Below, one piece after another: positions 14,868-32,000 of a stretch of DNA of 32,000 nt. Made by a program: the position numbers and the translations under genes. Position 1 is the stretch's first letter; each line of letters opens with the position of its first letter. The notes under the pieces were generated by a model. The model did no database searches. It saw only the letters and a program-made list of their open reading frames with translations, and was not told where the DNA came from. Source of the DNA: Candidatus Saccharimonadota bacterium (GTDB taxonomy: Bacteria; Patescibacteriota; Saccharimonadia; Saccharimonadales; Saccharimonadaceae); NCBI GenBank assembly GCA_016700015.1, contig CP064995.1, forward strand, positions 360,001 through 392,000, written 5' to 3'.

Positions 14868-14872
14868 GGCTA

Positions 14873-16695: not shown

Positions 16696-16707
16696 AAGCC
16701 CTTTTTT

Positions 16708-16729
16708 GCCCCCAGTAATCGCTGGGGGC
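16708..16729 (+). terminator. Candidate hairpin after 16339-16695
   Basis: gcccccag pairs with ctgggggc around a 6-nt loop. There is no clear T-run. Confidence 0.3.
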
Positions 16730-16888
16730 GCTTCAATAGCTAAAGTTCCAAGTCTATAGTATGAAGTGAGCGCTATAGTTGCAGCCAAAAAACTTGCTAT
16801 GAATAAAGATTAATAGAGACCTTTGCCTGTGTATGAGTAATCATAGTACTTGCCGATACCCGTTGGGCGTGTGTATAATCATAAGATA

Positions 16889-17836: not shown

Positions 17837-17905
17837 GGTGTACATATTGAGCAGACCAGAGTACGCCATTCCTGACTGTACTGGGGCAATGTTGAAGGAT
17901 GGGTG

Positions 17906-17934
17906 TTTACAAGGTGGTCGCTTTACCCTATAAT
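17906..17934 (+). promoter_or_regulatory. Promoter for tuf
   Basis: TTTACA (17906-17911), a 17-nt spacer, then TATAAT (17929-17934). Confidence 0.6.
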
Positions 17935-18042
17935 TAAACCCATACGCACGGGCGCGGATTATTGTGTGATGAACAGTGTTCACTACATCCATGAGCTCGC
18001 GTACCAAGCAATAACCAATCAATAATAGGAGATTTATCATCC

Positions 18043-19227
18043 ATGGCAGACTTCGACCGAAGCAAGCCCCACGTGAACGTCGGCACAATGGGCCACGTTG
18101 ACCACGGTAAAACAACTCTTACGGCAGCTATTACGAGCGTGCTGGCAAAGCGCCTTCCAAGCGCTACCAACAAACCAGTTGCCTATGACCAAATTGACAA
18201 TGCACCTGAAGAGAAGGCTCGTGGTATCACCATCGCTAGCTCTCACCAGGAATACGAGTCAGAGAAGCGTCACTACGCGCATGTTGACATGCCAGGTCAC
18301 GCCGACTATGTGAAGAACATGATCACTGGTGCCGCACAAATCGACGGCGCGATCCTTGTGGTTGCTGCCAATGACGGCCCATTACCACAGACCCGCGAGC
18401 ACGTATTGCTAGCTCACCAGGTCAATGTGCCAAAGATTGTTGTATTCCTCAACAAAATGGACCTAGCTGATCCAGAGCTTGTCGAGCTTGTTGAAATGGA
18501 CGTTCGCGAACTACTCACCAAGAACGGCTACGACGGCGACAACGCTCCGATTATCAAGGGTTCTGCTACCAAGGCCCTCGAAGGCGATTCTGCTTCCGAG
18601 GATGCAATCATGGAACTTGTCAAAGCTCTTGACGACTACATCGACGAGCCAAAGCGTGAACTCGACAAACCATTCCTCATGCCTATCGAGGACGTATTCT
18701 CGATCAAGGGCCGTGGTACAGTTGCGACTGGTCGTATTGAACAGGGTGTCATTAAGCTTAACGATGCAGTTGAAATTGTTGGTATTAAGCCAACCCAGAA
18801 CTCAGTTGTCACTGGTATCGAAGCTTTCAAAAAGAACCTCGACCAAGGCCAAGCTGGCGACAACGCTGGGTTGTTGCTCCGCGGTATTGAGCGCGAACAA
18901 ATCGAGCGCGGTCAGGTAGTGGTCAAGCCAGGTAGCCTGACACCACACACTGAATTTGACGCCGAAGTCTACATTTTGAAGAAGGAAGAAGGTGGCCGCC
19001 ACACACCATTCAGCAAGGGTTACAAGCCGCAGTTCTACTTCCGCACCACAGACGTGACGGGTGAAGTTGAACTGCCTGCTGACAAAGAAATGGTTATGCC
19101 AGGCGACACTGTTACCTTTAAGGTAAAACTGCTTGCTCCAATTGCTATGGAGCAGGGTCTCAACTTTGCTATCCGCGAAGGTGGTCGCACAGTTGGTGCT
19201 GGTGTCGTGACAAAGATCAATAAGTAG
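18043..19227 (+). CDS. tuf: Elongation factor Tu
   Basis: Full-length EF-Tu with [22 protein letters not shown] and a conserved C-terminal half. An SD (aggaga) lies upstream. Confidence 0.98.
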
Positions 19228-19244
19228 TTCTTGTTGCTACCCAT

Positions 19245-19272
19245 AAAACACCTCGGATACCCGAGGTGTTTT
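19245..19272. terminator. Intrinsic terminator after tuf (possibly bidirectional)
   Basis: aaaacacctcgg pairs with ccgaggtgtttt around a 4-nt loop. Its A/T-rich flanks lie inside the stem arms. Confidence 0.75.
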
Positions 19273-19333
19273 GCATTTGACAACTACTATAAAGAGCAGT
19301 AGCCCCTGAGCCAATGGAGGCGAGGAAATAGAC

Positions 19334-19723
19334 TTATGGTAGGCTGACGCGCTCAGCAACCACGACAATACGCTGATGGGGATCACGGTAAGCGGGGTTG
19401 CGGTCATTATAGGGCAAGTCTTGGCTTGTATCATATTCACCCACCCAAGCCACTGCACAGGTCCAGCCTTCCTGGTAGTTCACGTAGTCGCGCAGCACTG
19501 CTTCAAGCATGCGCTGCATCTCGGTTGTCGACCAATCGCGCGAAAGTTCTTCGTACGTATAGGTTCTGCCACCGTTAGCAATGGCTTCCATCATGCCCAT
19601 ACCAATGGTGTTGAGGTGATGCGCTGCGACAGCTCGCTCGAAAGTTATTTCATCTTCAGCTTCTGCAGTCGCTTGAGTCGCACCTGCGTCTAATAAGCGT
19701 GGGAAAACATCAATTTGCTTCAT
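19334..19723 (-). CDS. Hypothetical protein (129 aa) antisense between tuf and rpsJ
   Basis: The ORF starts at ATG 19723 (MKQIDVF...) with aggggt upstream. No family recognised. Confidence 0.5.
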   Translation of the reverse strand: MKQIDVFPRLLDAGATQATAEAEDEITFERAVAAHHLNTIGMGMMEAIANGGRTYTYEELSRDWSTTEMQRMLEAVLRDYVNYQEGWTCAVAWVGEYDTSQDLPYNDRNPAYRDPHQRIVVVAERVSLP

Positions 19724-19893
19724 ACTACCCCTAAGATTATGTTGTTTATGTGTATAGGTGGTCTCGCACCCCAATAACGTATACATAACCGTAATACCAC
19801 GGCCACACTACGGCTGTCAATAGCAGCGGTTCTTAAACGTAGCTAGTTATGCTATACTAGCGACGAACTCATGAACGAAAGGTGGTGAAGATA

Positions 19894-19992
19894 ATGAACG
19901 CAGCGGAAAGCTATATCACGCTTGACTGCCGCGACGGGCAGCATAGTGCCTGTCAAGGCGGCGGATGCGCCTGCAAGTGTCACCAGAAGTGA
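19894..19992 (+). CDS. Cys/His-rich microprotein (32 aa)
   Basis: The sequence is MNAAESYITLDCRDGQHSACQGGGCACKCHQK. An SD (aaggtggtg) lies upstream, with an extended -10 (tgctatact) at 19850-19858 and a hairpin at 19999-20024 downstream. It falls below the ORF-track length cutoff. Confidence 0.4.
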   Translation: MNAAESYITLDCRDGQHSACQGGGCACKCHQK

Positions 19993-20042
19993 GTCGCACC
20001 CCTCGGCCTTTCATAGGCCGGGGGATAGTTATGGCTAGTAAC

Positions 20043-20071
20043 TTTACAGATAGACAAGAAGCGCGTATAAT
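20043..20071 (+). promoter_or_regulatory. Promoter for rpsJ
   Basis: TTTACA (20043-20048), a 17-nt spacer, then TATAAT (20066-20071). It leaves a leader of about 100 nt. Confidence 0.6.
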
Positions 20072-20175
20072 AGCGCCATATCATTAATCGCCCAGGAGAA
20101 CTCGCCGAGACGCTGAGCCACTATGGCCACGAATCCAGGAGAGGTTACTGGGCACCCAACAAAGGAGCTGCTACT

Positions 20176-20505
20176 ATGGCAGAGAGTAAAGCACAGCCAG
20201 AAGGCTTACGTATTCGTATTCGCCTAAAGGCCTACGATCACAAAGTAATCGATCAGTCAGCAAAACAAATTATAGAAACAGCCTTGCGCACCGGTGCTAG
20301 CATCGCCGGCCCCGTGCCATTGCCAACACGCCGTAGCACCTACACGGTTGTGAAAAGCCCGCACGTGTACAAAATGGGTGGTGAAGCGTTTGAAATGCGC
20401 GTTCACAAGCGTCTTATTGACATTACCAATGCGACGCCAAAAACGATCGACAGCTTACAGAATCTCAGCCTGCCTAGTGGCGTAGACGCTGAAATCCGCA
20501 TGTAA
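20176..20505 (+). CDS. rpsJ: 30S ribosomal protein S10
   Basis: Conserved uS10 sequence ([17 protein letters not shown]...HKRLIDI). An SD (aaaggag) lies upstream. Confidence 0.97.
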
Positions 20506-20523
20506 CTACGCACCGTTGCAATA

Positions 20524-20555
20524 AAATACACCCGACCAGGGTGTATTTTATTTTA
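20524..20555. terminator. Intrinsic terminator immediately after rpsJ
   Basis: aaatacaccc pairs with gggtgtattt around a 5-nt loop, followed by tattttatttt. An A-run on the other side could also serve the convergent minus-strand gene. Confidence 0.75.
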
Positions 20556-20570
20556 GCTAACTGTTAGGTA

Positions 20571-20870
20571 CTATCGCTTAGCGCTCAGCGTCATTTCACT
20601 GACAGCGGCGTTTGATGCGTCGATTTGGTCGTAAATTCGCTGCACTTTATCGTTGATGGAAACTACCCATAAGCCAAGTGCAAGCACAAGCACTGCCAGG
20701 ATCGTCCAGTACAGTGTTTGGTGGGTAATGCGAAACGTGAAAAAAGGCTCCGTAGCGCGCGCGGGAGCAAATGATCGCATTGGAGCTGCTTTTGACTTTG
20801 ACGAAGTAGATGCAGGCTTGTGAGCTACCTTTGCTGCCGATTTCTTAACCGTTTTCTTTTTTGTAACCAT
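20571..20870 (-). CDS. Hypothetical single-pass membrane protein with Lys-rich N-terminus
   Basis: 99-aa ORF with an SD (agagga). There is one hydrophobic segment, LYWTILAVLVLALGLWVV. Confidence 0.55.
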   Translation of the reverse strand: MVTKKKTVKKSAAKVAHKPASTSSKSKAAPMRSFAPARATEPFFTFRITHQTLYWTILAVLVLALGLWVVSINDKVQRIYDQIDASNAAVSEMTLSAKR

Positions 20871-20946
20871 ATAATTCCTCTTTTACTAGTGCTTATTATG
20901 CCCGTGCTAAGCTAAAAATACAACACGCTTATGCTATAATTCTACC

Positions 20947-21270
20947 ATGACTTCTCCGCGTAGCAAACAACGTACCTATGCCCGTAATCGCTTAGTAAGC
21001 CGTCGTGGCTACCTGAAATCTACCGAAAGCGACGGCCAATACCTTTTGAAGCTAGTGCTGGTGGTGCTACTGGGCACGTTTTGGCTAAAATTCGGGCAGC
21101 CCATGACATTTGGTACTATCCCACTCGCCGGCATACCTGTCGGAATGCTATTTGGACTATTGGTGGTGCGAAAATTTGAAAAGTATCAGGCCGACCGCAA
21201 AATTTGGTACCTCGTGCTCATCATAGTCACGATCATATGCTACTTCATGCCGGCGGGAGTGGTAATTTAA
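20947..21270 (+). CDS. Hypothetical small membrane protein (3 hydrophobic segments)
   Basis: 107-aa ORF. An extended -10 (tgctataat, 20932-20940) lies only 6 nt before the ATG, which suggests a leaderless transcript. Confidence 0.55.
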   Translation: MTSPRSKQRTYARNRLVSRRGYLKSTESDGQYLLKLVLVVLLGTFWLKFGQPMTFGTIPLAGIPVGMLFGLLVVRKFEKYQADRKIWYLVLIIVTIICYFMPAGVVI

Positions 21271-21272
21271 AA

Positions 21273-21312
21273 CCCGCCACCCTAAGGCCCGATAAATCGG
21301 GAGGGTGACGGG
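21273..21312. terminator. Compound hairpin between convergent genes
   Basis: cccgccaccct pairs with agggtgacggg (1 mismatch), enclosing cccga/tcggg. On the minus strand it is followed by ttttaaatt. Confidence 0.55.
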
Positions 21313-21323
21313 AAAGCGAGCGA

Positions 21324-21692
21324 TTAGTCGCCGTTGTGTTTGGTGATGTCTACAATTGGACGGGTTGTCGGCTGCCAGCGCTTTGGTTCCGTCTTGTCAG
21401 GGGCCAGACTGATCCAGGCACCCTTGGCGGCGTCGAACACGCCTACCACTCGCGTGACCAGCTGACCGCCACGCACCTTCATATCGAGGGCAATATGACG
21501 AGCTTGCTCGCCAACCATCTGCGTCGCCTCCTCGAAGTGAAACCGTAGTTCACGGTCACCCATGGTGACGACAAGCGATTTCACACCGTTTTGGTCTTCG
21601 TCGATCCGAGTGTGTGCTTCGATAGTCGGCAGCACGCGCTGCGACACCCAGTCCATCACCCCACCGACCCAGTTGGAAAGCATGTGCGCCAT
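21324..21692 (-). CDS. Hypothetical protein (122 aa)
   Basis: The start at ATG 21692 forms a TAATG overlap with the upstream gene's stop. The longer 131-aa ORF would overlap by 28 nt. No family recognised. Confidence 0.5.
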   Translation of the reverse strand: MAHMLSNWVGGVMDWVSQRVLPTIEAHTRIDEDQNGVKSLVVTMGDRELRFHFEEATQMVGEQARHIALDMKVRGGQLVTRVVGVFDAAKGAWISLAPDKTEPKRWQPTTRPIVDITKHNGD

Positions 21693-22039
21693 TAGTTCAG
21701 CACCAGCCAGTGTCCGCATATGTTGAGCGATTGGATTTGCAGTGTACCCGACTTATATCCAGCTTGGGGCCGGAGTGCACGCACACTAACTGTAGCGTTA
21801 CGCCAACGTCGTGGCCGTGCTAGGTCCTTCAGCGTCGATGCAGCACCGACAGAGTAACTCGTCGCATTAGCACGTATGATGCGATCAGGCCTGGTTGGGT
21901 CTTTGATCTCAACATAGATACAGCCACTCCTGGCATCCGGTGCAAGGTGTGGCTGGTGCTCAAACGGCGGCACATAGCGCATAAATCGCGCCTTGGTACT
22001 GACTGTGACGAAACCATGCTCAAGCAGATTGTTCAACAT
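21692..22039 (-). CDS. Hypothetical protein (115 aa)
   Basis: A strong SD (aaggag) lies upstream of ATG 22039. No family recognised. Confidence 0.5.
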   Translation of the reverse strand: MLNNLLEHGFVTVSTKARFMRYVPPFEHQPHLAPDARSGCIYVEIKDPTRPDRIIRANATSYSVGAASTLKDLARPRRWRNATVSVRALRPQAGYKSGTLQIQSLNICGHWLVLN

Positions 22040-22399
22040 AACTGCTCCTTATTCTGGAAATGAACGAGTCGGAAGACTTGCTGCAAGTACTCTACTAGTG
22101 ATTTACTACCCACGTCAACCATAGGTAGTATAAGCGTATAACTTGGCAATTGAAATTAGCCTGCTACACGCTCTACGGTCAGTACTCAAGAACATGTAGT
22201 GAGCGGCAAAGTGATCTTCTGTAGTATACTCGCCGCTGCAAATTACTGGTAACCTTGACTAACAGTGGCAGTGTGTGCTACGATAACTTGGTAACTTATT
22301 ACGTAATAACAACTCGTTCTCGGTGAATTGGCAAGTCTTATACGAGGGATACTGCCAGCCACTGGGGATTTTAAATGGGAAAATGGGAGCAAAAGGGCT

Positions 22400-23014
22400 A
22401 TGAAAGCACTTCTCGGTACCAAAATTGGTATGACCCAGATCATCGGCGAAGATGGTGTTACTATTCCTGTAACACTTATTCAAGCCGGCCCTTGTACTGT
22501 GACTCAGGTGAAGTCTGTCGAAACCGACGGCTACAACGCAGTGCAAGTGGCATATGGTCAGGGTAAGAACCTGAGCAAGGCCGTGGCTGGTCATGTAAAA
22601 CCAGCCGGTGTAACACCCGAAGAAATTCGGGAATTTCGTGTTGACGACCTAGGTGAAATCAAGGTCGGAGACGCATGGGATATTAGCGAGTTCGCACTCG
22701 GCGATAGCGTCGATGCAACCGGTATCAGCAAAGGTAAAGGCTGGGCCGGCACCATCAAGCGTCACAACTTCAAACGACACCGCAAAACACACGGTGGTAA
22801 AGGTAACACGCGCAAGGTTGGTAGCATCGGTAGCATGTACCCACAAAAAATCTTTAAAGCTAAACGAATGGCAGGCCAAATGGGCGGCGACCAAGTAACG
22901 GTGAAAAACCTACAGGTTGCCTACATCTCTGTCGCCGACAACCTAGTCGGTGTCAAAGGTGCTGTGCCAGGCCCCAAAAAGGGCTTAATCGTACTAAACG
23001 GAGGTACTAAGTAA
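22400..23014 (+). CDS. rplC: 50S ribosomal protein L3
   Basis: It starts MKALLGTKIGMTQ, the canonical uL3 N-terminus, with gggag upstream. The 24-codon upstream extension from TTG 22328 is rejected. Confidence 0.95.
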   Translation: MKALLGTKIGMTQIIGEDGVTIPVTLIQAGPCTVTQVKSVETDGYNAVQVAYGQGKNLSKAVAGHVKPAGVTPEEIREFRVDDLGEIKVGDAWDISEFALGDSVDATGISKGKGWAGTIKRHNFKRHRKTHGGKGNTRKVGSIGSMYPQKIFKAKRMAGQMGGDQVTVKNLQVAYISVADNLVGVKGAVPGPKKGLIVLNGGTK

Positions 23015-23634
23015 TGGCTACTGCAGAACAAAAGCCAGCAAAAGTCACCTTGCCAAAAAGCGTCTTTGCAGTTGACGTGCCCAGTCACGAGCTGTTAAAG
23101 CTCGCGTACGACGCATTCCTCGCAAACAGTCGCAAGGCAAGTGCTACTACCAAGACTCGCGGTGAAGTGAGTGGTGGTGGTAAAAAACCATGGAAGCAAA
23201 AGGGCACTGGCCGCGCACGCTTCGGCAGCAGCCGCAACCCAATTTGGCGCCATGGTGGTGTCGTGTTTGGGCCAAGCGGCAACGAAAACTACAAACTCAA
23301 GCTATCGAAAACAAGCAAGCTCGTGGCGGTGCGTCAAGCACTAACTCTTGCCAATCAGGCCAAGAAGATCACTGTCACCGATGTGAAGACTACCGGCAAA
23401 ACTGCCGAAGTAGCCGCCTTTATCGCTGCACAGAAGTTCGACGCAGATGCCAAGGTGCTTCTTGTTGTCGACGAAAAGACTCCAGCCCTGATGCGCGCGA
23501 CGAACAACCTGCAAAATGTGCTGTTAGTCCGCGCAACCTACCTGAGTGTTTATTACGTACTCAATGCCGATCAAATTGTCATGACCCCAGCTGCCGTAAA
23601 AGCCGTCGAAGCATGGTTGGGAGGTAACAAATAA
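23014..23634 (+). CDS. rplD: 50S ribosomal protein L4
   Basis: Conserved uL4 (GGGKKPWKQKGTGRARFGSSRNPIWRHGGVVFGP). TAATG coupling to rplC. Confidence 0.95.
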   Translation: MATAEQKPAKVTLPKSVFAVDVPSHELLKLAYDAFLANSRKASATTKTRGEVSGGGKKPWKQKGTGRARFGSSRNPIWRHGGVVFGPSGNENYKLKLSKTSKLVAVRQALTLANQAKKITVTDVKTTGKTAEVAAFIAAQKFDADAKVLLVVDEKTPALMRATNNLQNVLLVRATYLSVYYVLNADQIVMTPAAVKAVEAWLGGNK

Positions 23635-23810
23635 TGTTTGACCGATTAAAAACCACAGATTTTCAGCGCATACTTAAGGGTAGGCGCGATAATCAACTAG
23701 AACAGGCCGCTCAGGCTGCAGAAGCTGATGCAACACTCCTTCCCGAAGTAGCAGCCATGCTTGCTGCTGCATTGCGTAATGACAAAACTCCATCTGGAGG
23801 TAACAACTAA
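23634..23810 (+). CDS. Inserted 58-aa ORF between rplD and rplW
   Basis: The sequence is MFDRLKTTDFQRILKGRRDNQLEQAAQAAEADATLLPEVAAMLAAALRNDKTPSGGNN. There are TAATG overlaps at both ends, and the ggaggtaacaa[a/c]taatg junction is duplicated on both sides. It falls below the ORF-track cutoff. Confidence 0.45.
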   Translation: MFDRLKTTDFQRILKGRRDNQLEQAAQAAEADATLLPEVAAMLAAALRNDKTPSGGNN

Positions 23811-24127
23811 TGAAAACTATTCTCGTAACCCCTAGGGCTACCGAAAAAGCCTATCGCCTTGTTACCGCACAGAACACCTATGTGTTCAATGTGCCGACAA
23901 GCGCCAATAAACAACAAATCGTCGACGCTGTGCAGGCACAGTACGACGGCGTGAAAGTCGCTAGCGTCAAAACTGTGCTGCAGAGCGGCAAATCCGTCCG
24001 CTTCAGCCGCGGCAAACGCCGCTACCCAGGTACCATCACTCGCCAAGACACAAAGAAGGCCTATGTCACACTGAGTGAAGGCAAGATCAAGGTGTTCGAG
24101 CAAGATGCAGAGAAGGAGAAGAAATAA
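23810..24127 (+). CDS. rplW: 50S ribosomal protein L23
   Basis: Conserved uL23 sequence in the expected operon position. Confidence 0.93.
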   Translation: MKTILVTPRATEKAYRLVTAQNTYVFNVPTSANKQQIVDAVQAQYDGVKVASVKTVLQSGKSVRFSRGKRRYPGTITRQDTKKAYVTLSEGKIKVFEQDAEKEKK

Positions 24128-24393
24128 TGCGTAGTCCAGAAATTGGCACATTTAACTCTAAACCTGAAATCGAACAAGAGCCAGTATCAAAGATATCGAT
24201 GTCTCGAGAAGATATTGCTGCATATGTAAGGACAGCATATGCTAAAGATTTGGATAACGTTGATATTATCGAGACAATTTACCTAGAGTTAGAAGAAAGG
24301 CTAGACGTAGCATCCTTTGCTGTAGCACAAGATGTGATATTCAATCTAATGGTTTACTGTGCAGGCAATAAACGTTTCGAGGAGATTGTCTAA
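24127..24393 (+). CDS. Inserted 88-aa acidic ORF between rplW and rplB
   Basis: TAATG overlaps at both ends, its own SD, and visibly AT-richer than the flanking r-protein genes. No family recognised. Confidence 0.55.
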   Translation: MRSPEIGTFNSKPEIEQEPVSKISMSREDIAAYVRTAYAKDLDNVDIIETIYLELEERLDVASFAVAQDVIFNLMVYCAGNKRFEEIV

Positions 24394-25232
24394 TGGCCAT
24401 CCAAAGCTACAACCCAACTACTCCTGCCCGTCGCGGCATGACAAGCCAAGACACGAGCGACATCACCACGCGTAAGCCGCTGAAGAGCCTTGTCAAAAGC
24501 AAGAAAATGGTTGCCGGTCGCAACAACACCGGTCGCATCACTGTCCGCCATCGTGGCGGTGGGGTGCGCAGGCATTACCGATTGCTCAATCATCGTTTGT
24601 CGAGTGGGCTCACGCTAACTGTCGAGCAAATCGAGTACGACCCTAACCGTAGTGCTCGCATCGCTCGCGCTAAAGATCAGCATGGCCTGTACCACTACAT
24701 CTTGGCTGATACCAACATGCAGCAGGGTACCGTGATTAAGACCGGTGCTGAAGCGCCAGTTGAAACCAGTAACCGCATGCCACTCAGTAATATACCGGTT
24801 GGCGCGCAGATTTATGCGATCGAAATCAACCCAGGCAAGGGTGCTCAAATGGTACGTGCAGCTGGTGCAAAAGCACAGCTCATGGCCAAAGAAGGCGACT
24901 ACGCCATGGTACGTATGCCAAGTGGCGAGGTCCGCAAATTCCGCCTAGAATGCGAAGCAACACTTGGTGTTGTTGGCAACGTGCAGCACCAGAACATCAA
25001 AGTTGGTAGCGCCGGGCGCAAACGCCGCAAGGGTATCCGCCCAACCGTTCGTGGTGTCGTACAAAACGCCGCAGATCACCCACACGGTGGTGGTGACGGT
25101 GGTCGCCACGGTACCGGTAAAGCACCTCGTACTCCATGGGGTCAGCTCACACTTGGTTATCGTACCCGTACCCGCAAATCAACCGACAAGATGATTGTCC
25201 GCAGTCGTCACGAAGCTAAGAGGAAGAAGTAG
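24393..25232 (+). CDS. rplB: 50S ribosomal protein L2
   Basis: Conserved uL2 (GRNNTGRITVRHRGGG...HPHGGGDG). Confidence 0.97.
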   Translation: MAIQSYNPTTPARRGMTSQDTSDITTRKPLKSLVKSKKMVAGRNNTGRITVRHRGGGVRRHYRLLNHRLSSGLTLTVEQIEYDPNRSARIARAKDQHGLYHYILADTNMQQGTVIKTGAEAPVETSNRMPLSNIPVGAQIYAIEINPGKGAQMVRAAGAKAQLMAKEGDYAMVRMPSGEVRKFRLECEATLGVVGNVQHQNIKVGSAGRKRRKGIRPTVRGVVQNAADHPHGGGDGGRHGTGKAPRTPWGQLTLGYRTRTRKSTDKMIVRSRHEAKRKK

Positions 25233-25238
25233 GGTATT

Positions 25239-25490
25239 ATGTCAGCTGATATATTACGTTTTACAGATCCAGCTTTGCTTCCAGGAAAAGTTCCATTCAC
25301 CGACAATATGAAAGCCGCATATGATGACCTCAAGGGTGATAAAGCTTACCGATCACATCCCGATCTTGTAGCTAGGTCTCTTCAGCGACTTGGTGCAGCT
25401 ACCTATGGCGCAATCGAAGCAGGAAGAGATGCAATGGCTGCCGAACGACGCGCATTCGGTTTAGAAAATGATAATAAGGAGAGTAACTAA
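25239..25490 (+). CDS. Inserted 83-aa ORF between rplB and rpsS
   Basis: The ATG lies 6 nt after the rplB stop, and the ORF ends in a TAATG overlap with rpsS. No family recognised. Confidence 0.55.
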
Positions 25491-25753
25491 TGAGTCGATC
25501 ACTCAAAAAAGGCCCATTCGTCGACGCGAAGCTTGCCCGTAAAGTGGCGGCTCTGAAAGTTGGCGACCGCACGGTTACCAAGACCTGGGCCCGCAGCAGT
25601 ACAATCACACCAGACATGGTAGGGTTTACGTTTGCGGTACACAACGGTCGCGTGCATGTACCAGTACTAGTGAGCGAGAACATGGTAGGCCACAAGCTCG
25701 GTGAGTTTAGCCCTACCCGCAAGTTCCGCAAGCATGGCGGTAAGGAGAAGTAG
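25490..25753 (+). CDS. rpsS: 30S ribosomal protein S19
   Basis: [12 protein letters not shown]... is canonical uS19. Confidence 0.96.
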
Positions 25754-25754
25754 T

Positions 25755-26180
25755 ATGGCAGAAGTAACTCTACAAAAAGTACGCGCCCATATAAAAGGCG
25801 TCGACCAGACTCCCCGCAAGGTGAGCTTGATCGCGAGCCTGGTGCGTGGCCGTAGTGTCGCAGACGCTATGGTTATCCTTGAGCACACGCCAAAGCGTGC
25901 TGCACTGGTTGTCAAAAAGGCGATTGCGAGCGCTGCTGCCAATGCCACCAACAACCACAATCTTGACAGTAAAACACTGCAGATCGCTACGCTGAGCGTG
26001 ACTGCTGGCCCACGCATGAAGCGTTTCAAGCCTGCAAGCCGCGGCCGTGCGCTGCCATTCCAGAAGCGCAGTAGCCATATACTAGTAGAAGTAAGCGGTA
26101 CCGAAAAGGTGCGCAAGAAGTCTGCTGAAAAGACGGCAGAAGCTGCTGAATTGCCAGCTAAGAAAGAGGAGAAGAACTAA
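25755..26180 (+). CDS. rplV: 50S ribosomal protein L22 with Lys/Glu/Ala-rich C-terminal tail
   Basis: The uL22 core follows MAEVTLQKVRAH. The start is set at ATG 25755, 1 nt after the rpsS stop. Confidence 0.93.
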   Translation: MAEVTLQKVRAHIKGVDQTPRKVSLIASLVRGRSVADAMVILEHTPKRAALVVKKAIASAAANATNNHNLDSKTLQIATLSVTAGPRMKRFKPASRGRALPFQKRSSHILVEVSGTEKVRKKSAEKTAEAAELPAKKEEKN

Positions 26181-26818
26181 TGGGACAAAAAGTTAACCCA
26201 ATTAGCTTCCGTCTACAAGTCCACAAGAACTGGACATCGCGCTGGTTCGCAAGCAAAAAAGATTTTGCCAGGTGGCTTGCAGAGGATATTCGCGTTCGCG
26301 AGCTAATTGAAAAGAAGTTTGAAAGTCGTCCGACTATCAACAAAATCGAGATTGAGCGCAGCGCCAACCTCATTACTGTTACCATCCACACTGCTAAAGC
26401 CGGTGTAGTGATTGGTCGTGGCGGTGCCGGTGTTGCAGAGCTGAAGAAAGATATCGAAAAGCTAGCGAGTCTACCTGTGCGTATTAATATTGAAGAAGTA
26501 AAACGACCAGAACTCGCCGCCAAGCTTGTAGCTGAAAATATCGCTCGTCAGCTGGAGCGCCGCGCTAACTTCCGCCGTGCTATTAAAATGGCCGCACAAA
26601 GCACAATGAACGCCGGTGCTAAGGGTATTCGTATCCAGGTAGCTGGGCGACTCAACAATGCCGAAATGGCTCGCCGCGAAAAAGTGATCGAAGGTTCAGT
26701 GCCGTTGCATACGCTGCGCGCTGATATTGACTTCCATACTGCTCGCGCAAACTGCCCAGGTGTTGGAATTGTCGGTGTGAAGGTATGGATTTATAAGGGC
26801 GAAAGGAGCACACGCTAA
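26180..26818 (+). CDS. rpsC: 30S ribosomal protein S3
   Basis: [12 protein letters not shown]... with a KH domain, canonical uS3. Confidence 0.97.
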
Positions 26819-27231
26819 TGCTGCTACCAAAAAAAGTTGCCCATCGTAAAGTCCGTATCGGCAAAAACGAAGGCGTCGCTACTCGCGGTCACTACGTTGC
26901 CTTTGGCGACTATGGCCTACAAAGCCTCGAAAACGAACGCATTACTAGCCGCCAGATCGAATCAAGCCGTCAGGCGATGACCCGCTACATTAAGCGCGGT
27001 GGTAAAATCTGGATCCGCATTTTCCCACATACTCCTGTGACCAAAAAACCACTTGGGCTCAAAATGGGCGGCGGCAAGGGCCAGCCAGAATACTATGTTG
27101 CCAAGGTAAAGGCCGGCACCGTGCTATTTGAAATGAAAGGTGTCACCGAAGATATCGCTCGCGAAGCGATGCGTCTCGCCGGACACAAACTTCCAGTGAG
27201 AACCCGATTTGTAAAGAGGGAGGAGGCATAA
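26818..27231 (+). CDS. rplP: 50S ribosomal protein L16
   Basis: [11 protein letters not shown]... is canonical uL16. Confidence 0.97.
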
Positions 27232-27232
27232 G

Positions 27233-27472
27233 ATGGCTGAAGTAAAGAAAACAGCGAAAAAGCCTGCTGCAAAGAAGGCAGTCGAAGTAAAATCAGCTGC
27301 CGACATGCAGAAACTCCTCACCGAAAAGCAGAAAGATTTGATGGAAAGCCGTCGCTCACACGCAAGTGGCGAGCTGGTAAACCCACGAGTGCTCAGCACT
27401 CTACGTAAAGAAATTGCGCGCCTTCACACAGCTATCCGAGCCGATGAACGACGCGAAAAGGAGAGTAAATAA
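27233..27472 (+). CDS. rpmC: 50S ribosomal protein L29 with Lys/Ala-rich N-terminal extension
   Basis: The uL29-like core is LTEKQKDLMESRRSHASGELVNPRVLSTLRKEIARLHT, in the expected operon position. Confidence 0.88.
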   Translation: MAEVKKTAKKPAAKKAVEVKSAADMQKLLTEKQKDLMESRRSHASGELVNPRVLSTLRKEIARLHTAIRADERREKESK

Positions 27473-27473
27473 T

Positions 27474-27779
27474 ATGGCCAAGACATTGACCGGTATTGTG
27501 ACCTCAGACGTCGCAGACAAAACCATCACCGTCACCGTTACTAGCCGTGAGACTCATCCTATCTATGGCAAGCAGTACACTGTTAGTCGTAAATATGTTG
27601 CTCACGACGAGAAAAATACTGCTGGCAAGGGCGACAAAGTGACGATTGTTGAGACACGTCCGATTAGTAAACGCAAAGCATTTGAACTCCAGGAAATCCT
27701 AGAGAGGTCTAAGGGATCAATCCAAGTGAAAAATGACACCGAAGAAGTTCTTCCTGAAGCCGAGGAGGACAAAGCATAA
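27474..27779 (+). CDS. rpsQ: 30S ribosomal protein S17 with acidic C-terminal tail
   Basis: [22 protein letters not shown]... is canonical uS17. The start is set at ATG 27474. Confidence 0.93.
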
Positions 27780-28147
27780 TGATCCAGCAAGAAACCAGGT
27801 TAAAAGTCTGCGACAACAGTGGTGCCAAGGAAGTTCTGTGCATCAAAGTTCTCGGTGGCTCTAGGCGGCGCTATGCTCGGGTTGGTGATATCATCACCGT
27901 GAGCGTCAAAGACGCTAGTCCTACAGGGAACGTAAAGAAAAAAGCCGTGGTAAAAGCCGTGGTAGTACGAACTCGTGACCAGATTCGCCGTAAAGACGGC
28001 AGCACAATCTGTTTTGACGACAATGCCGTTGTGATTATAAATGACGACAAAACGCCAAAAGCTACTCGTGTGTTTGGCCCTGTGCCACGCGAACTGCGCG
28101 ATATGGGCTATGCCAAAATCATCAGCCTTGCGCCGGAGGTACTCTAA
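27779..28147 (+). CDS. rplN: 50S ribosomal protein L14
   Basis: [18 protein letters not shown]... is canonical uL14. Confidence 0.97.
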
Positions 28148-28148
28148 T

Positions 28149-28469
28149 ATGGCTCAGCGTATTCGCAAAGATGATTTCGTAAAAATTACCAGTGGTACCG
28201 ACAAAGGCACAACTGGCAAAGTGCTCGCTGTATTCCCAAGCAAAAACACCGCGCTTGTCGACGGTGTCGGCAAGGGTACACGGCACGTTAAGCCAAATCA
28301 GCTCAACCCACGCGGTGGCAAGAAAGACATTCATGTCGGCATTGCTCTGCACAAACTGGCACTTGTCACCGATGAAAAATCGGGCAAAACCAGCCGAATT
28401 GGCTACAAAGTAACCGATGGCGTAAAGGCTCGTGTAGCCCGCCAGCAGAAAAATAAGGAGATTAAATAA
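28149..28469 (+). CDS. rplX: 50S ribosomal protein L24
   Basis: MAQRIRKDDFVKITSGTDKGTTGKVL... is the KOW motif of uL24. The start is set at ATG 28149. Confidence 0.93.
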   Translation: MAQRIRKDDFVKITSGTDKGTTGKVLAVFPSKNTALVDGVGKGTRHVKPNQLNPRGGKKDIHVGIALHKLALVTDEKSGKTSRIGYKVTDGVKARVARQQKNKEIK

Positions 28470-28576
28470 TGCGATTTTTCGAAAAGAGCAGCCAGTCCCG
28501 AGCGATTTACTCGCTCGCACTGCGCGATGAGAAAAACGCTTGCGTTTGTCTCATGATAGTTAAGGAGATTAAATAA
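28469..28576 (+). CDS. Possible 35-aa ORF spanning repeat element copy A (rplX|rplE junction)
   Basis: The sequence is MRFFEKSSQSRAIYSLALRDEKNACVCLMIVKEIK, with TAATG overlaps at both ends. It may instead be a non-coding element. Confidence 0.3.
   Translation: MRFFEKSSQSRAIYSLALRDEKNACVCLMIVKEIK
28481..28554 (+). repeat. 74-nt hairpin-rich repeat, copy A
   Basis: It is identical to 29177-29250 except for one base (t/c at 28496 vs 29192). Hairpin cgagcga/tcgctcg spans 28499-28517. Hairpin atgagaaaaacgc/gcgtttgtctcat spans 28527-28554. Confidence 0.9.
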
Positions 28577-29160
28577 TGGCAGAATCCAAAAAAGCCGCCG
28601 TTTACACTCCTCGCTTGAAAGCCTTGTACAAGAATCAGTACGTCAAGGAACTACAGGCCGAATTGAAGCTCGACAATGTACATGAAGTACCGAGTCTTGA
28701 GAAGATTGTGGTAAGCGTAGGAACCGGTAAAAGCAAAGACGACAAGCGCATGCTTGAAGCAGTCAAGAATACCCTGACAAAAGTAACTGGCCAGGCGCCT
28801 GTTGAGCGACTTGCCAAAAAATCAATTGCAAGTTTCAAAATCCGCGCCGGCATGGGTGCCCCTGTGGGAATCAATGTAACACTGCGCGGCGCTCGGATGT
28901 ACGAGTTCCTTGATCGTTTTGTTAACATTGCGCTGCCACGCGTACGCGACTTCCATGGTGTCGGCGTAAAGTTCGACCGCGGCGGCAACTACAACCTTGG
29001 CATTACCGACCAGAGCATTTTCCCAGAGCTGACATTTGAAGAAACACAGATTGTTCACGGAATGCAGGTGACATTTACCATCAACAATGGTGACAAAGTA
29101 AAGAGCCGTGCATTGCTAGAAAAATTCGGTCTACCTTTTGAAAAAGAAGGGGGCAGGTAA
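28576..29160 (+). CDS. rplE: 50S ribosomal protein L5
   Basis: Conserved uL5 sequence in the expected operon position. Confidence 0.96.
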   Translation: MAESKKAAVYTPRLKALYKNQYVKELQAELKLDNVHEVPSLEKIVVSVGTGKSKDDKRMLEAVKNTLTKVTGQAPVERLAKKSIASFKIRAGMGAPVGINVTLRGARMYEFLDRFVNIALPRVRDFHGVGVKFDRGGNYNLGITDQSIFPELTFEETQIVHGMQVTFTINNGDKVKSRALLEKFGLPFEKEGGR

Positions 29161-29161
29161 T

Positions 29162-29275
29162 ATGAAGACTGTATTTGAAAAGAGCAGCCAGCCCCGAGCG
29201 ATTTACTCGCTCGCACTGCGCGATGAGAAAAACGCTTGCGTTTGTCTCATAACTGATAAAGAAGGAGGACGCTAA
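29162..29275 (+). CDS. Possible 37-aa ORF spanning repeat element copy B (rplE|rpsN junction)
   Basis: The sequence is MKTVFEKSSQPRAIYSLALRDEKNACVCLITDKEGGR. It starts 1 nt after the rplE stop and ends immediately before the rpsN ATG. Confidence 0.3.
   Translation: MKTVFEKSSQPRAIYSLALRDEKNACVCLITDKEGGR
29177..29250 (+). repeat. 74-nt hairpin-rich repeat, copy B
   Basis: See copy A. The offset between copies is 696 nt, and they bracket rplE. Confidence 0.9.
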
Positions 29276-29545
29276 ATGGCCAAGAAATCTATGATTGCTC
29301 GCGACAAAAAGCGTCAGAAGCTAATTGCCAAGTTTGCCGCGAAACGCGCTGAACTAAAAGAGCTTGGCGACCTTGACGGTTTGCAAAAGCTGCCAAAGAA
29401 CAGCAGCCCAACCCGCTGGAAAAATCGCGATGTACTAAGCGGCCGCCCACGTGGCTACATGCGCAGGTTTGGCCTGAGCCGCATCAACTTCCGCGAAAAA
29501 GCAGTCAAGGGTGAAATCCCCGGTATAACCAAGAGTAGCTGGTAA
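29276..29545 (+). CDS. rpsN: 30S ribosomal protein S14 (long form, lacking the Cys zinc-binding motifs)
   Basis: [13 protein letters not shown]...[18 protein letters not shown]...W is canonical uS14. Confidence 0.95.
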
Positions 29546-29562
29546 GGAAAGGAGTAAAAGAA

Positions 29563-29964
29563 ATGAGTTTACAATCTACTGACCCAATCGCTGACCTCCT
29601 GACCCGCATTCGCAATGCAGCTATGGTTGGCAAAACTGAAGTACGCGTCCCAACAAGCAAGCTCAAGCAAGTTGTTGCTGAGCAGCTAGTAAAGAACAAT
29701 TACCTGGCAGATGCCAAGGTAGAAGATGGCAAGCCACGCGGTACATTGGTTGTCACCATCAACAAACCTGGCGAAAACTGTAACATTACCGAAATTGCAC
29801 GTGTCAGCAAGCCTGGCCGCCGTGTATACGCTAGCGCAGCCGAAATCCCCAAAGTGAAATCTGGCCGCGGTATCGTACTGGTGAGCACCAGCAAAGGTGT
29901 TATGACTGGTGGCGAAGCCGTCCGCAACAAGCTGGGCGGAGAAGTGCTATTAAAGGTTTACTAG
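29563..29964 (+). CDS. rpsH: 30S ribosomal protein S8
   Basis: DPIADLLTRIRNA... is canonical uS8. Confidence 0.96.
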   Translation: MSLQSTDPIADLLTRIRNAAMVGKTEVRVPTSKLKQVVAEQLVKNNYLADAKVEDGKPRGTLVVTINKPGENCNITEIARVSKPGRRVYASAAEIPKVKSGRGIVLVSTSKGVMTGGEAVRNKLGGEVLLKVY

Positions 29965-29965
29965 T

Positions 29966-30268
29966 ATGGCAAATAAGGAAGCTACGGCCCAACTAACGGG
30001 TGATCAGCACATAGATGACACCCACCTCGAGTATCAGGACGATACCGCAAGAGCGAATGAGCTAGCTATAGAACTTGGTAGAATAGCAAACGAACTTGGT
30101 GAGATTTTTGGTATGCTTAGTAATCCTGCGCGTGTAACCCGCGATGCTGCCCATGCAGTGGATAGACAACTTGCGACTAATCGTCAGGCTGTGCTCAATA
30201 GGCAGCATAGCGCAACAATAGCCCCCGAGCCTCGTCTCGATGTGAGAAAACGACCAACAATCCGTTAG
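29966..30268 (+). CDS. Inserted 100-aa ORF between rpsH and rplF
   Basis: The ATG lies 1 nt after the rpsH stop. The protein is acidic and helical-looking. No family recognised. Confidence 0.5.
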   Translation: MANKEATAQLTGDQHIDDTHLEYQDDTARANELAIELGRIANELGEIFGMLSNPARVTRDAAHAVDRQLATNRQAVLNRQHSATIAPEPRLDVRKRPTIR

Positions 30269-30293
30269 TAAAAATGATTAAGAAAGGAAAGAT

Positions 30294-30836
30294 ATGAGTC
30301 TGAGTCGAATCGGAAAACTACCAATCGCGATTCCGTCCGGTGTGACAATCACGGTTGATTCGGGCGATGTAACTGTCGAAGGCCCCAAGGGCAAACTAAT
30401 ACAGTTTATCACTCCCGCTGCCGCCGTAGCAGTAGAAGACGGCCAAGTAAAAGTAAGTCCCAAGGACGAAAGCCAAGAAGCACGTGCTCAGCACGGGCTT
30501 ATGCGCGCGCTGATCAACAACATGGTGATTGGTGTTACCAAAGGCTACGAGAAGCGCCTAGAAGTAAAGGGCGTGGGCTTTAGGGTATCGAGCAGCAACA
30601 ACGAGCTAACTATGAGCCTCGGGTTTAGCCACGAAGTGAAATTTAAGGCACCCGAAGGTGTAAATGTCAGCAATGACAAAATGGTGATTGTTGTTAGTGG
30701 TATCGACAAGCAAAAAGTCGGCCAAGTGGCGGCTGAAATCCGCGCACTGAAAAAGCCAGAGCCATACAAGGGCAAAGGTATCATGTACGTCGACGAACAA
30801 GTGCTCCGCAAAGCAGGAAAGGCTGGTAAGAAGTAA
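30294..30836 (+). CDS. rplF: 50S ribosomal protein L6
   Basis: MSLSRIGKLPIAIPSGVTI... is canonical uL6. Confidence 0.96.
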   Translation: MSLSRIGKLPIAIPSGVTITVDSGDVTVEGPKGKLIQFITPAAAVAVEDGQVKVSPKDESQEARAQHGLMRALINNMVIGVTKGYEKRLEVKGVGFRVSSSNNELTMSLGFSHEVKFKAPEGVNVSNDKMVIVVSGIDKQKVGQVAAEIRALKKPEPYKGKGIMYVDEQVLRKAGKAGKK

Positions 30837-31192
30837 TGAGTAATTCACTTGCAAAGAAACTCCTTGGGCGCAGCCTGCGTAAAGCACGTGTGCGCAGCAA
30901 GGTTAGCGGCAGCGCTGAGCGACCACGCCTGAGTGTTACCCTCAGTAACACACATGTTTCAGCACAGATTATCGATGACGTGAAACAACACACGCTCGCA
31001 AGTGCAACGACCGTCGGTACGAAAGCTACTGGCACTATGACCGAAAAGTCTGCACTTGTAGGCGCAGAAATCGCCAAAAAGGCTAAGAAAGTTAAAGTAA
31101 CCGCAGTGGTATTTGATCGCAATGGCCGCCAGTACGCTGGCCGACTAAAAGCGCTTGCAGACGCCGCTCGCAAGGAAGGATTGGAGTTCTAG
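30836..31192 (+). CDS. rplR: 50S ribosomal protein L18
   Basis: The uL18 core is ...RPRLSVTLSNTHVSAQIIDD...FDRNGRQYAGRLKALADAARKEGLEF. Confidence 0.95.
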   Translation: MSNSLAKKLLGRSLRKARVRSKVSGSAERPRLSVTLSNTHVSAQIIDDVKQHTLASATTVGTKATGTMTEKSALVGAEIAKKAKKVKVTAVVFDRNGRQYAGRLKALADAARKEGLEF

Positions 31193-31193
31193 T

Positions 31194-31886
31194 ATGGCCG
31201 AAAACGCCCCAGAACAAACCACACCTCGCGCCGACGCGCCTAGGGGACGTCAGCAAGGTCGAGGTGGTCGTCGCGATGACCGACGCAATGCTGCCCCAGA
31301 GGCACCAAAAGAATTTGAAGAAGTAGTGATAAACATCGACCGCGTGGCCCGTGTAGTAAGTGGTGGACGCCGCTTTCGCTTTAAAGCCCTCGTCGTGGTG
31401 GGTAATCGCAAAAACAAAGTCGGTGTTGGTGTTTCAAAAGGCGCCGATGTACAGGCAGCAATAGCAAAAGCAACCGATGTTGCAAAAAAGCACTTGGTTA
31501 CAGTGCCCGTGGCAAATGAGACCATCCCCCACGAAACTGAAGTAAAGCTCAGTGGTGCACGCGTATTGCTAAAGCCTGCTGCCCCCGGTACTGGTATTAT
31601 TGCCGGTGGCGTGGTACGCGCAGTTGTTGGTACTACTGGCATCCGTAATCTTGTCAGCAAGAGCCTGGGCAGCACGAACAAAGTCAACATCGCGTATGCA
31701 ACTGTCGAAGCACTTGGCGGGCTTGTACCGCGTGAGAAGTGGCTGGGTGCCGAGAAGAAAACTGAAAAAGCTGCTAAACCTGCCGCCAAAGTCGAGAAAG
31801 TTGAAGCAGCAGTAACTGCACCAGCAAAAGCTACTGCCAAAAAGCCTGTTGCTAAAAAAGCGCCTGCGAAAAAGGAGACAAAGTAA
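31194..31886 (+). CDS. rpsE: 30S ribosomal protein S5 with Arg-rich N-terminal and Lys/Ala-rich C-terminal extensions
   Basis: The uS5 core is [27 protein letters not shown]...GTGIIAGG. The start is set at ATG 31194. Confidence 0.95.
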
Positions 31887-32000
31887 TGAAGTACAATGAG
31901 CTCCAAGTTGGCGCCAACCGTACCCGCAAGCGCGTTGGTCGCGGTATTTCAGCCGGTGGCGGTAAAACTGCTGGGCGTGGTACTAAGGGCCAGAACGCCC
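31886..32000 (+). CDS. rplO: 50S ribosomal protein L15 (5' part, truncated by window end)
   Basis: [38 protein letters not shown] is the uL15 N-terminus. It has a TAATG overlap with rpsE, and no rpmD lies between them. Confidence 0.9.

Follow-up and report, generated by a model that had tools for sequence, protein, structure and literature searches.

Small orphan open reading frames at ribosomal protein gene junctions of a Saccharimonas-like bacterium, probable laterally acquired cassettes

Four small open reading frames (ORFs), orfA to orfD, interrupt the S10-spc cluster of ribosomal protein (r-protein) genes in a 32,000-nucleotide (nt) stretch of a Candidatus Saccharimonadota genome (contig CP064995.1, positions 360,001 to 392,000; hereafter the window). 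The four ORFs are probably laterally acquired accessory cassettes, lodged in S10-spc junctions of a Saccharimonas-like bacterium with translational coupling kept, and not parts of the ribosome. Among relatives, they show gain, loss, and replacement, not conservation. A preliminary description of this DNA had placed them on the operon strand at four r-protein gene junctions and had suggested that they are either lineage-specific ribosome-associated proteins or selfish riders on the operon. The coordinates, junctions, and strand are confirmed (table 1). The four products are identical to GenBank entries of a 1,011,181-nt contig, where they are labeled as hypothetical proteins, and the same four-ORF arrangement is found, identical, in contigs of at least nine independent samples and assemblers. 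Mis-assembly is therefore excluded.

Table 1. Features of the S10-spc junctions, in positions of the window
Feature	Coordinates	Strand	Description
orfA (orfA58)	23634..23810	+	58 amino acids (aa), rplD-rplW junction; QQS22310.1, IPM09_02075; TAATG overlap at each end
orfB (orfB88)	24127..24393	+	88 aa, AT-rich, rplW-rplB junction; QQS22312.1, IPM09_02085; TAATG at both ends
orfC (orfC83)	25239..25490	+	83 aa, rplB-rpsS junction; QQS22314.1, IPM09_02095
orfD (orfD100)	29966..30268	+	100 aa, rpsH-rplF junction; QQS22326.1, IPM09_02155
Duplicated junction, upstream copy	23620..23636	+	Shine-Dalgarno (SD)-stop-start junction, GGAGGTAACAAATAATG; encodes rplD C-terminus GGNK-stop
Duplicated junction, downstream copy	23796..23812	+	SD-stop-start junction, GGAGGTAACAACTAATG; encodes orfA C-terminus GGNN-stop and the SD for rplW
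rplB 3′ end	25195..25232	+	~33 nt invariant in five-sequence alignment (positions 46-78); candidate upstream homology arm
rpsS first ~45 nt	25490..25534	+	~35 nt invariant in five sequences; first difference between window and L092 at ~45 nt; candidate downstream homology arm
mini1	28469..28576	+	35-aa repeat-derived ORF, rplX-rplE junction; flanked by 18-nt junction duplication TAAGGAGATTAAATAATG
mini2	29162..29275	+	37 aa, second copy of mini1 repeat, rplE-rpsN junction; diverged duplicate of rplE 3′ end (KEGGR-stop)

Turnover of the ORFs among relatives

The window was compared with related r-protein loci, which are denoted by L-numbers (115 loci and 1415 r-protein junctions in the survey). 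Among species-level genomes in GTDB, the nearest to it is a metagenome-assembled genome of Candidatus Saccharimonas (locus L001), and none of 80 GTDB species representatives carries any of the four ORFs. Closer comparisons come from three further samples, L126, L127, and L128, which are 90–98% identical in DNA to the window along the operon, and from a sister species, L093, with ~70–90% nt identity. Mapping of presence and absence by junction, as proposed in the preliminary description, finds orfB and orfC absent and orfD replaced in L126, and orfA, orfB, and orfC absent from L093. L126–L128 carry orfA with three amino acid differences, and it is the only one of the four present in L126 and L127; orfA is absent from L093 and from every locus other than L126–L128. 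The rplW-rplB junction of L126–L128 is contiguous, with ...AGAAATAATG followed directly by GCTATC, and the same empty orfB site (...AGAAATAATG followed by GC...) is found in L093. The rplB-rpsS junction is likewise contiguous in L126–L128 and L093 (empty orfC site, AAGAAGTAG-TTT-ATGAGT), and the sites of mini1 and mini2 are precisely empty in L126; L127 and L128 have neither repeat.

The rpsH-rplF junction has a different history. In L126 (6021–6272), as in L127 and L128, an unrelated 83-aa basic ORF stands in place of orfD, with exactly the same flanks (GGTTTACTAGTATGG ... AAGAAAGGAAAGATATGAGTCTGAGTCG). Conversely, L093 has an orfD homologue at the same site (12411–12713) that is 100 aa long and 65% identical. 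The more distant relative thus has the homologue where the closer one has an unrelated ORF, a case of cassette replacement. Both orfA and orfD are kept in frame in relatives. Turnover extends to another species group, in which L099 and L100 differ by four junction indels or replacements despite being 94–98% identical to each other.

The distribution of orfC points to a recent move between species. A copy in L092 (orfC′) is ~98% identical to orfC of the window, with four substitutions, all non-synonymous (0 synonymous), and one 12-nt indel, while the genes flanking that copy are only 76–81% identical to the window, a disparity that indicates recent lateral transfer. In the adjacent rpsS, synonymous divergence (dS) between the window and L092 is 0.70, and rpsS-rplV share 76% DNA identity. 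The rpsS-rplV segment of L092 instead resembles L100 (97.5% identity) and L099 (96%), and within this group the rplB-rpsS junction occurs in three states: empty (L100), with a different 96-aa cassette (L099), and with orfC′ (L092). The last rplB codons of L092 are window-like (KRKK-stop), not L100-like (KRKR-stop). The high-identity tract around orfC ends within invariant stretches at the rplB 3′ end (33 nt) and the rpsS 5′ end (35–45 nt), the trace that recombination via conserved arms would leave.

Divergence elsewhere in the operon is uneven. Between the window and L126, dS forms a mosaic by gene, ranging from 0 (rpsS) to 0.54 (rplB). The most diverged gene, at 89.8% nt identity, is rplB (window 24393–25232 versus L126 924–1763), which lies between the orfB and orfC sites; from rpsS to rpsQ, dS is 0–0.09. 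This gene-to-gene mosaic argues for frequent recombination inside the operon. The pattern suggests that one recombination tract brought orfB, rplB, and orfC jointly. In the same comparison, synonymous divergence of orfA is below that of its flanks (2 of 41 versus 35 of 175 sites, P = 0.02).

Estimates of the ratio of non-synonymous to synonymous substitution rates (dN/dS), also proposed in the preliminary description, separate orfD from the other three ORFs. Between the window and L126, orfA has two synonymous and three non-synonymous changes (dN/dS 0.46). The numbers are zero and one for orfB (window versus L089) and zero and four for orfC (window versus L092), with no dN/dS value for either, and three and five for an 81-aa cassette compared between L099 and L100 (dN/dS 0.61). 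Pooled over orfA, orfB, orfC, and this cassette, 5 synonymous and 13 non-synonymous changes give a dN/dS of ~0.82 that is not distinguishable from 1 (P = 0.78). The pooled non-synonymous:synonymous ratio of 13:5 differs from the 48:313 of r-protein genes (P = 7e-8), and dN/dS of the flanking r-protein genes is 0.01–0.16. On these counts, orfA, orfB, and orfC evolve near-neutrally, without detectable constraint. Within-species single-nucleotide polymorphisms (L081–L090) number one non-synonymous and zero synonymous in the inserts, too few for use. For orfD, dN/dS between the window and L093 is 0.35 (P = 2e-4) and falls to 0.25 in the C-terminal half; an L23 value of the same comparison, computed out of frame, is left aside. 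Its DNA identity to the L093 homologue (75–77%) is like that of the flanks; therefore, orfD predates the split of the window and L093 and has been moderately constrained since. The oldest of the four, orfD may have gained a function or may only be kept non-toxic.

Junction anatomy and coding character

Across the survey, the median gap between r-protein genes is −1 to +3 nt at 15 of 17 junctions, the others being rpsN-rpsH (16 nt) and rpsH-rplF (22 nt). Inserts of 80–1000 nt number 83, in 45 loci. An operon-strand ORF fills at least 80% of the insert in 43 of these 83, an antisense ORF in none. Nearly all ORF-filled inserts are in Saccharibacteria, and they are most frequent in the closest relatives of the window, at 22 of 161 junctions, versus 2 of 397 in distant members of the candidate phyla radiation (CPR). 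The rpsH-rplF junction is a hot spot with 21 inserts, including ~10 unrelated cases in which the ORF starts 1–2 nt past the rpsH stop codon. All inserts that overlap the downstream start codon have an SD in their last codons. In 42 of the 43 filled inserts, GC content at third codon positions (GC3) is lower than in host r-protein genes, and the longer ORFs are mostly acidic. Junction ORFs fall into two classes, short ones (<52 aa) that belong to repeat families and longer ones (58–101 aa) that are unique orphans; orfA, orfB, orfC, and orfD are in the latter class.

The four inserts measure 175 (orfA), 266 (orfB), 257 (orfC), and ~330 nt (orfD), and an operon-strand ORF occupies 92–101% of the gap at each junction. 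At the 3′ ends of orfA, orfB, and orfC, TAATG overlaps the start codons of rplW, rplB, and rpsS, as had been described, and a TAATG overlap with the upstream stop codon also begins orfA and orfB. The start of orfC is 6 nt past the rplB stop codon. That of orfD is 1 nt past the rpsH stop codon (TAGTATG), and orfD ends 25 nt upstream of rplF, which retains its own SD (GAAAGGA). Upstream of the ORFs, the SDs are GGAGG (orfA), AAGGAG (orfB), and AGAGGAAG (orfC), with AAAGG only before orfD, in agreement with the earlier remark that the fourth is weak. Each ORF has its own ATG, and its frame differs from that of the upstream gene. From this arrangement we infer translational coupling of the four ORFs, a reading well grounded in the sequence. 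Of 14 overlapping stop-start pairs that were tested, 13 showed strict coupling (PMC6728339); PMC12548453 reviews coupling models.

The junction duplication reported around orfA is real. Its two copies are identical at 16 of 17 nt, with the common form GGAGGTAACAA[A/C]TAATG, and an undivided junction of similar sequence occurs in L103 (GGAGGTAAAAAATAATG). Direct repeats at insert ends are thus 17 nt at orfA (16/17) and 18 nt at mini1; the 266-nt orfB insert is bounded by the 5-nt repeat TAATG alone, and orfC and orfD have none. The 17–18 nt repeats exceed typical transposase target duplications and coincide with the functional SD-stop-start motif. No terminal inverted repeats or palindromic ends are present at any insert boundary, and no transposase domain was found in the four ORFs, which are too small to contain one. 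In a scan of positions 22000–31000, promoters and terminators occurred at the level of shuffled sequence, with no operon-strand terminator within any insert. An Rfam scan of positions 20000–32000 (E ≤ 1) had no match, so none of the known leader or regulatory RNAs of r-protein genes accounts for the inserts. Origin by duplication of neighboring genes was considered and rejected, as blastn-short and tblastn searches of the inserts against the 32-kb window had no match. Outside of the r-protein operon, positions 1–20000 of the window contain no convincing bridging ORFs of a similar kind.

In coding character, the four ORFs resemble genes. In dinucleotide-preserving shuffles of each insert, the probability that the frame of the ORF is open is 0.042 for orfA, 0.0006 for orfB, 0.0051 for orfC, and 0.0021 for orfD (product ~3e-10), and all other frames of the inserts contain 1–12 stop codons each. 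The frame-0 codon log-likelihood advantage is 0.36–0.66 per codon, and equally long pieces of real genes average 0.45. In all four, GC content decreases from the first to the third codon position (GC1 > GC2 > GC3), and G accounts for 0.38–0.43 of first positions. Their GC3 of 0.27–0.37 (0.29 in orfB) is lower than that of every one of 33 host genes examined (0.39–0.62). The foreign look previously attributed to orfB therefore extends to all four, and orfB is indeed AT-richer than its neighbors (GC 0.38 versus ~0.52). The isoelectric points (pI) of orfA, orfB, orfC, and orfD are 6.1, 4.4, 5.7, and 6.0, and their description as mostly acidic is fair.

Homology searches bear out the earlier statement that the ORFs resemble neither one another nor any known family. 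Searches of Pfam, NCBIfam, PHROGs, and PADLOC gave no significant match for any of the four; the best family matches of orfB, DUF5751 (E = 0.038) and phrog_15450 (E = 0.039), were taken as noise. A full HMMER search of 1.84 billion representatives with orfA returned itself alone, and its 90%-identity cluster also contains a 3-aa variant of a close relative. The other three were compared by word search, which returned itself alone for orfB (5.8 billion proteins) and for orfD, and itself and one 87-aa relative (P0002) for orfC. Peptide-pattern scans of IMG/VR with each of the four ORFs had no match, nor did a tblastn search of 50,697 phage genomes with orfB, and no paralogues of the four are present in protein databases or in the 32-kb window. 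All-versus-all comparison of junction ORFs for remote homology (blastp and phmmer --max) linked only the short repeat families and near-identical alleles. A likeness of orfC to a 75-aa sequence of L001, noticed by eye, was unsupported by this comparison.

Single-sequence AlphaFold2 (AF2) modeling predicts a three-helix bundle after a disordered 20-residue N-terminus for orfB (predicted local distance difference test score, pLDDT, 78) and a helical hairpin with disordered ends for orfD (pLDDT 76). The orfB model has no fold match in PDB or BFVD, and the orfD model has none in PDB. The cassette products are probably produced as small, soluble, helical proteins. No defense or toxin-antitoxin partner genes adjoin the ORFs, whose neighbors are solely r-protein genes. 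The features tested speak against the four ORFs being insertion sequence elements or miniature inverted-repeat transposable elements, known defense genes, or phage genes.

Repeat families and larger genes at other junctions

The two mini-ORFs of the window belong to a repeat family that resembles the interspersed repetitive units of mycobacteria (MIRUs) and comprises junction ORFs of 35–40 aa in three Saccharibacteria genomes, at five different r-protein junctions. Besides those of the window, its members are located in L100 (11390–11497) and L029 (3196–3309, 6328–6450, and 7722–7832). The repeat has two hairpins, GAGCGAG...CTCGCTC and GAGAAAAACGC...GCGTTTGTCTC. The copy in L100 is 89% identical to mini2 of the window, and the flanks are ~74% identical. 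At mini2, the 3′ end of rplE is duplicated (29130–29160 versus 29245–29275), and both copies encode KEGGR-stop through synonymous changes (GGG GGC AGG versus GGA GGA CGC). In relatives, the undivided junction corresponds to the downstream copy; the SD is weakened in the upstream copy, which is where rplE now really ends.

Two other repeat families are each confined to one genome. That of L023 occupies rplB-rpsS, rpsN-rpsH, and rpsH-rplF (6855–7004, 10852–11007, and 11411–11548), that of L110 rpsC-rplP and rpsQ-rplN (3722–3862 and 4857–4943), and all of their ORFs are coupled to neighbors. Full-size accessory genes are also present at r-protein junctions of other Saccharibacteria (L039, 11208–12785; L063, 4738–6816 and 10673–11167; L006, 11363–11908). 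Their products include repeat-rich surface-type proteins of 525 and 692 aa, a 164-aa protein that is metallophosphoesterase-like by eye, and a 181-aa membrane protein. The rpsH-rplF gaps of L024 and L009 are 0.9–1.9 kb, and some such gaps have no long ORF.

Within the window, a gap of 1.8 kb separates rpsJ and rplC (20505–22328) and includes a GC-rich patch (0.55–0.59). It has ORFs on the minus strand (20571–20870, 21324–21719, and 21692–22039) and a membrane-like ORF on the plus strand (20947–21270). The stretch is of variable content and 0.5–2.8 kb long in most related loci. At the start of rplF (30294–30311, ATGAGTCTGAGTCGAATC), the window has an extra AGTCTG, two codons, relative to the ATGAGTCGAAT of most relatives; the extra codons are also present in L126.

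Competing explanations and significance

In the model we favor, each cassette is a promoter-less operon-strand ORF with its start on or beside the upstream stop codon, and the last ~5 codons of orfA, orfB, and orfC rebuild the SD and TAATG of the interrupted junction. Ribosomes that end an upstream r-protein gene would reinitiate first at the cassette and next at the r-protein gene that follows it, so that no polarity on essential genes would result. Cassettes would be gained, lost, and swapped among strains and species by homologous recombination, with the near-invariant gene ends serving as homology arms. The natural competence of Saccharibacteria (PMC10633639) makes spread by recombination plausible. 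If a cassette suffered a frameshift, a nonsense mutation, or an imprecise deletion, the essential genes downstream would be uncoupled, so the open frame would be kept while the amino acid sequence would be mostly free to drift. The earlier suggestion of selfish riders on the operon fits in its main respects. The ORFs are foreign-looking and strain-variable, orfC has been exchanged between species, and the SD and stop-start signals are kept; to be selfish in the strict sense, they would also need a transmission advantage.

Several points weigh against this model. The near-neutral estimate is built on small counts, 5 synonymous and 13 non-synonymous changes. The dN/dS of orfD is far under what an open frame alone would lead one to expect, and implies constraint at the protein or RNA level. 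The confident AF2 models of orfB and orfD fit evolved proteins over junk. Translation, coupling, and protein fate are all deduced from sequence. Only one contig of 738 nt, L092, links orfC′ to a divergent rpsS. A further contig, L091 (logan:SRR770574_1077949), shows 100% identity to L093 for 2227 nt, as far as the end of rplB, and runs on into orfC′. Assembly with k=31 probably produced it as a chimera at the 33-nt invariant 3′ end of rplB, and its reading as the same strain as L093 plus orfC was rejected once rpsS of L092 was placed in the L099/L100 group. Homologous recombination would account for the spread of cassettes, not for their first insertion, and the 17–18 nt junction duplications at orfA and mini1 suggest that a specific insertion mechanism may exist. 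Transformation is in general expected to remove insertions more readily than to add them, and persistence of the cassettes may therefore need selection.

The other proposal of the preliminary description, that the four ORFs encode lineage-specific ribosomal or ribosome-associated proteins making up for those missing from CPR ribosomes, is very unlikely. It draws on the tight coupling inside the S10-spc operon and on the retention of orfD at 100 aa in the sister species with a dN/dS of 0.35. Archaeal r-protein operons contain extra translation-related genes, a precedent that counts in its favor, as does the unusual nature of CPR r-proteins and rRNAs, which is documented separately. The latter is described in PMC9297842. 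Against it, orfB and orfC are missing and orfD is replaced in a relative with 90–98% DNA identity, orfA, orfB, and orfC are missing from the sister species, and the junction ORFs of related genomes are mutually non-homologous, some being transmembrane peptides. The proteins are orphans and acidic to neutral, not basic, and orfA, orfB, and orfC evolve near-neutrally, unlike their r-protein neighbors. Presence and absence in relatives largely refute a ribosomal role for orfA, orfB, and orfC. It is conceivable, though on balance unlikely, that the cassettes are functional, fast-evolving accessory proteins, for instance of phage or host conflict or epibiont-host interaction, which use the strong constitutive expression of the operon in a promoter-poor genome and are kept by diversifying or strain-specific selection, not by entrenchment. 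Strain-level turnover with alternative cassettes per site resembles defense or antigen islands, codon periodicity is gene-like, the helical models of orfB and orfD are confident, all four orfC differences are non-synonymous, orfD is constrained, and the same junctions hold larger surface and membrane protein genes in other Saccharibacteria. Such roles would sit poorly with the lack of any match in PADLOC, PHROGs, Pfam, IMG/VR, or phage genomes, of any fold match, and of partner genes at the locus, and with a pooled dN/dS of ~0.8 that is not >1. The varied lengths and chemistries also speak against one single function.

If the inserts were essentially non-coding spacers or remnants of mobile DNA, with the frame open only for ribosome passage and the peptides degraded as by-products, near-neutral evolution of orfA, orfB, and orfC would follow, as would the preponderance of operon-strand ORFs (43 of 83 inserts, versus 0 of 83 antisense). 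The short junction ORFs are repeat elements (the mini, L023, and L110 families), and short ORFs whose sole role is to deliver ribosomes are covered in a review (PMC12548453). We nevertheless regard this explanation as quite improbable, given that three-base periodicity and G-rich first codon positions exceed what stop avoidance alone would create, that the four ORFs are unique and not repeats, that dN/dS of orfD is 0.35, and that the predicted folds of orfB and orfD are confident. The chance that the ORFs are artefacts, whether from mis-assembly, from noise in gene calling, or as r-protein extensions by read-through or frameshift, is practically negligible. They are small orphans in a metagenome-assembled genome, and the related contig L091 looks chimeric, yet an identical sequence is found in at least nine independent samples and assemblers, each ORF has its own ATG in a frame that differs from the upstream gene, openness of the frames is highly non-random, and orfA and orfD are conserved in frame in relatives.

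The closest known system to the four ORFs is the MIRU, a mycobacterial mobile repeat that inserts at start codons in such a way that its own ORF and the gene are coupled (PMC12548453, citing Supply et al. 1997). In the outline of that review, MIRUs insert at intercistronic junctions or start codons in operon orientation; likewise, all four ORFs are on the operon strand, and the junctions that they occupy are contiguous in relatives. The ORF of a MIRU, in the same outline, overlaps or adjoins the stop and start codons that flank it, as in the four ORFs except at the rplF side of orfD. The mini1/mini2, L023, and L110 families fit the outlined pattern well, including the repetitiveness of the mini family. 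By that outline, the four ORFs differ in being single-copy and mutually unrelated, as judged in protein databases and the 32-kb window. MIRU units are ~40–100 nt in size, and the four inserts, at 175–330 nt, are 2–4 times longer. The four ORFs also have protein-like codon statistics and predicted folds, for which MIRUs are not known, and are swapped as unique cassettes among strains and species, in a different phylum and in an r-protein operon. Thus, the principle is the same, but the four ORFs depart from MIRUs in two defining features, being neither repetitive nor short.

Other systems share single aspects. Rickettsia palindromic elements (RPEs), reportedly described by Ogata et al. in 2000, are said to be selfish DNA in frame within protein-coding genes. 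Like the four ORFs, they are small non-autonomous inserts of a reduced genome that survive by staying translatable and leave essential genes undisrupted. Unlike them, RPEs are repeats inside genes and part of the host protein; the ORFs are separate cistrons, non-repeat, and without palindromic ends. The term Rickettsia palindromic element occurs in PMC1779305 and PMC10969869. Short upstream ORFs that deliver ribosomes, including synthetic bicistronic designs (PMC12548453), are alike in the hand-over of ribosomes to an overlapping start codon, with the peptide perhaps irrelevant. Those leader ORFs are at the 5′ end of messages, whereas the four ORFs are strain-variable cistrons of 58–100 aa between two essential coupled genes. 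Flexible genomic islets are accessory genes exchanged by homologous recombination between conserved core genes in competent bacteria. They have in common with the four ORFs the strain-variable presence, non-homologous alternatives per site, identical cassettes in divergent backgrounds, and mosaic divergence of flanks; here, in contrast, the units are single promoter-less ORFs of <350 nt placed exactly between r-protein stop and start codons.

The S10-spc cluster has been stable over very long times in Gammaproteobacteria and Bacilli, and of the insertions analyzed in detail there, one is inside the rpoBC operon and the others lie between operons (PMC8046335). Against this background, turnover at strain level within the operon is unusual. 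We found no description of such cassettes in Saccharibacteria, or of unique protein-like cassettes in ribosomal operons, in open-access papers and preprints. The earlier view that the arrangement is undescribed thus stands for the latter, but the principle of coupled-ORF inserts is known from MIRUs (PMC12548453).

More tentatively, Saccharimonas-like bacteria might share a fast-turnover pool of enzyme-less, promoter-less cassettes specialized for essential operons. Such cassettes would spread by transformation via r-protein gene ends, would be expressed by termination-reinitiation, and would be hindered from loss by polarity, and they would constitute a distinct class of operon-parasitic mobile element, an idea that we regard as possible but doubtful. 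In a further step, some cassettes, for example those like orfD, could have been co-opted as proteins of conflict or host interaction that are specific to strains.

The S10-spc operon is among the most conserved gene arrangements of bacteria and provides a stable set of phylogenetic markers for uncultivated lineages, yet here its internal junctions are hot spots at which small orphan genes are gained, lost, and swapped at the level of strains. Two cautions would follow. Contigs of r-protein genes from metagenomes may be chimeric across invariant gene ends, as in L091, which affects their use as marker genes, and annotation of junction ORFs as new ribosomal proteins should be avoided. For genetic tools in Saccharibacteria with natural competence, the junctions may also offer insertion sites that are neutral and strongly expressed. 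If confirmed, the cassettes would be evidence of frequent between-species recombination inside core genes of Saccharibacteria and a natural system for testing how far termination-reinitiation stretches. They would also represent a route by which orphan genes are strongly expressed from the outset in genomes with few promoters and regulators.

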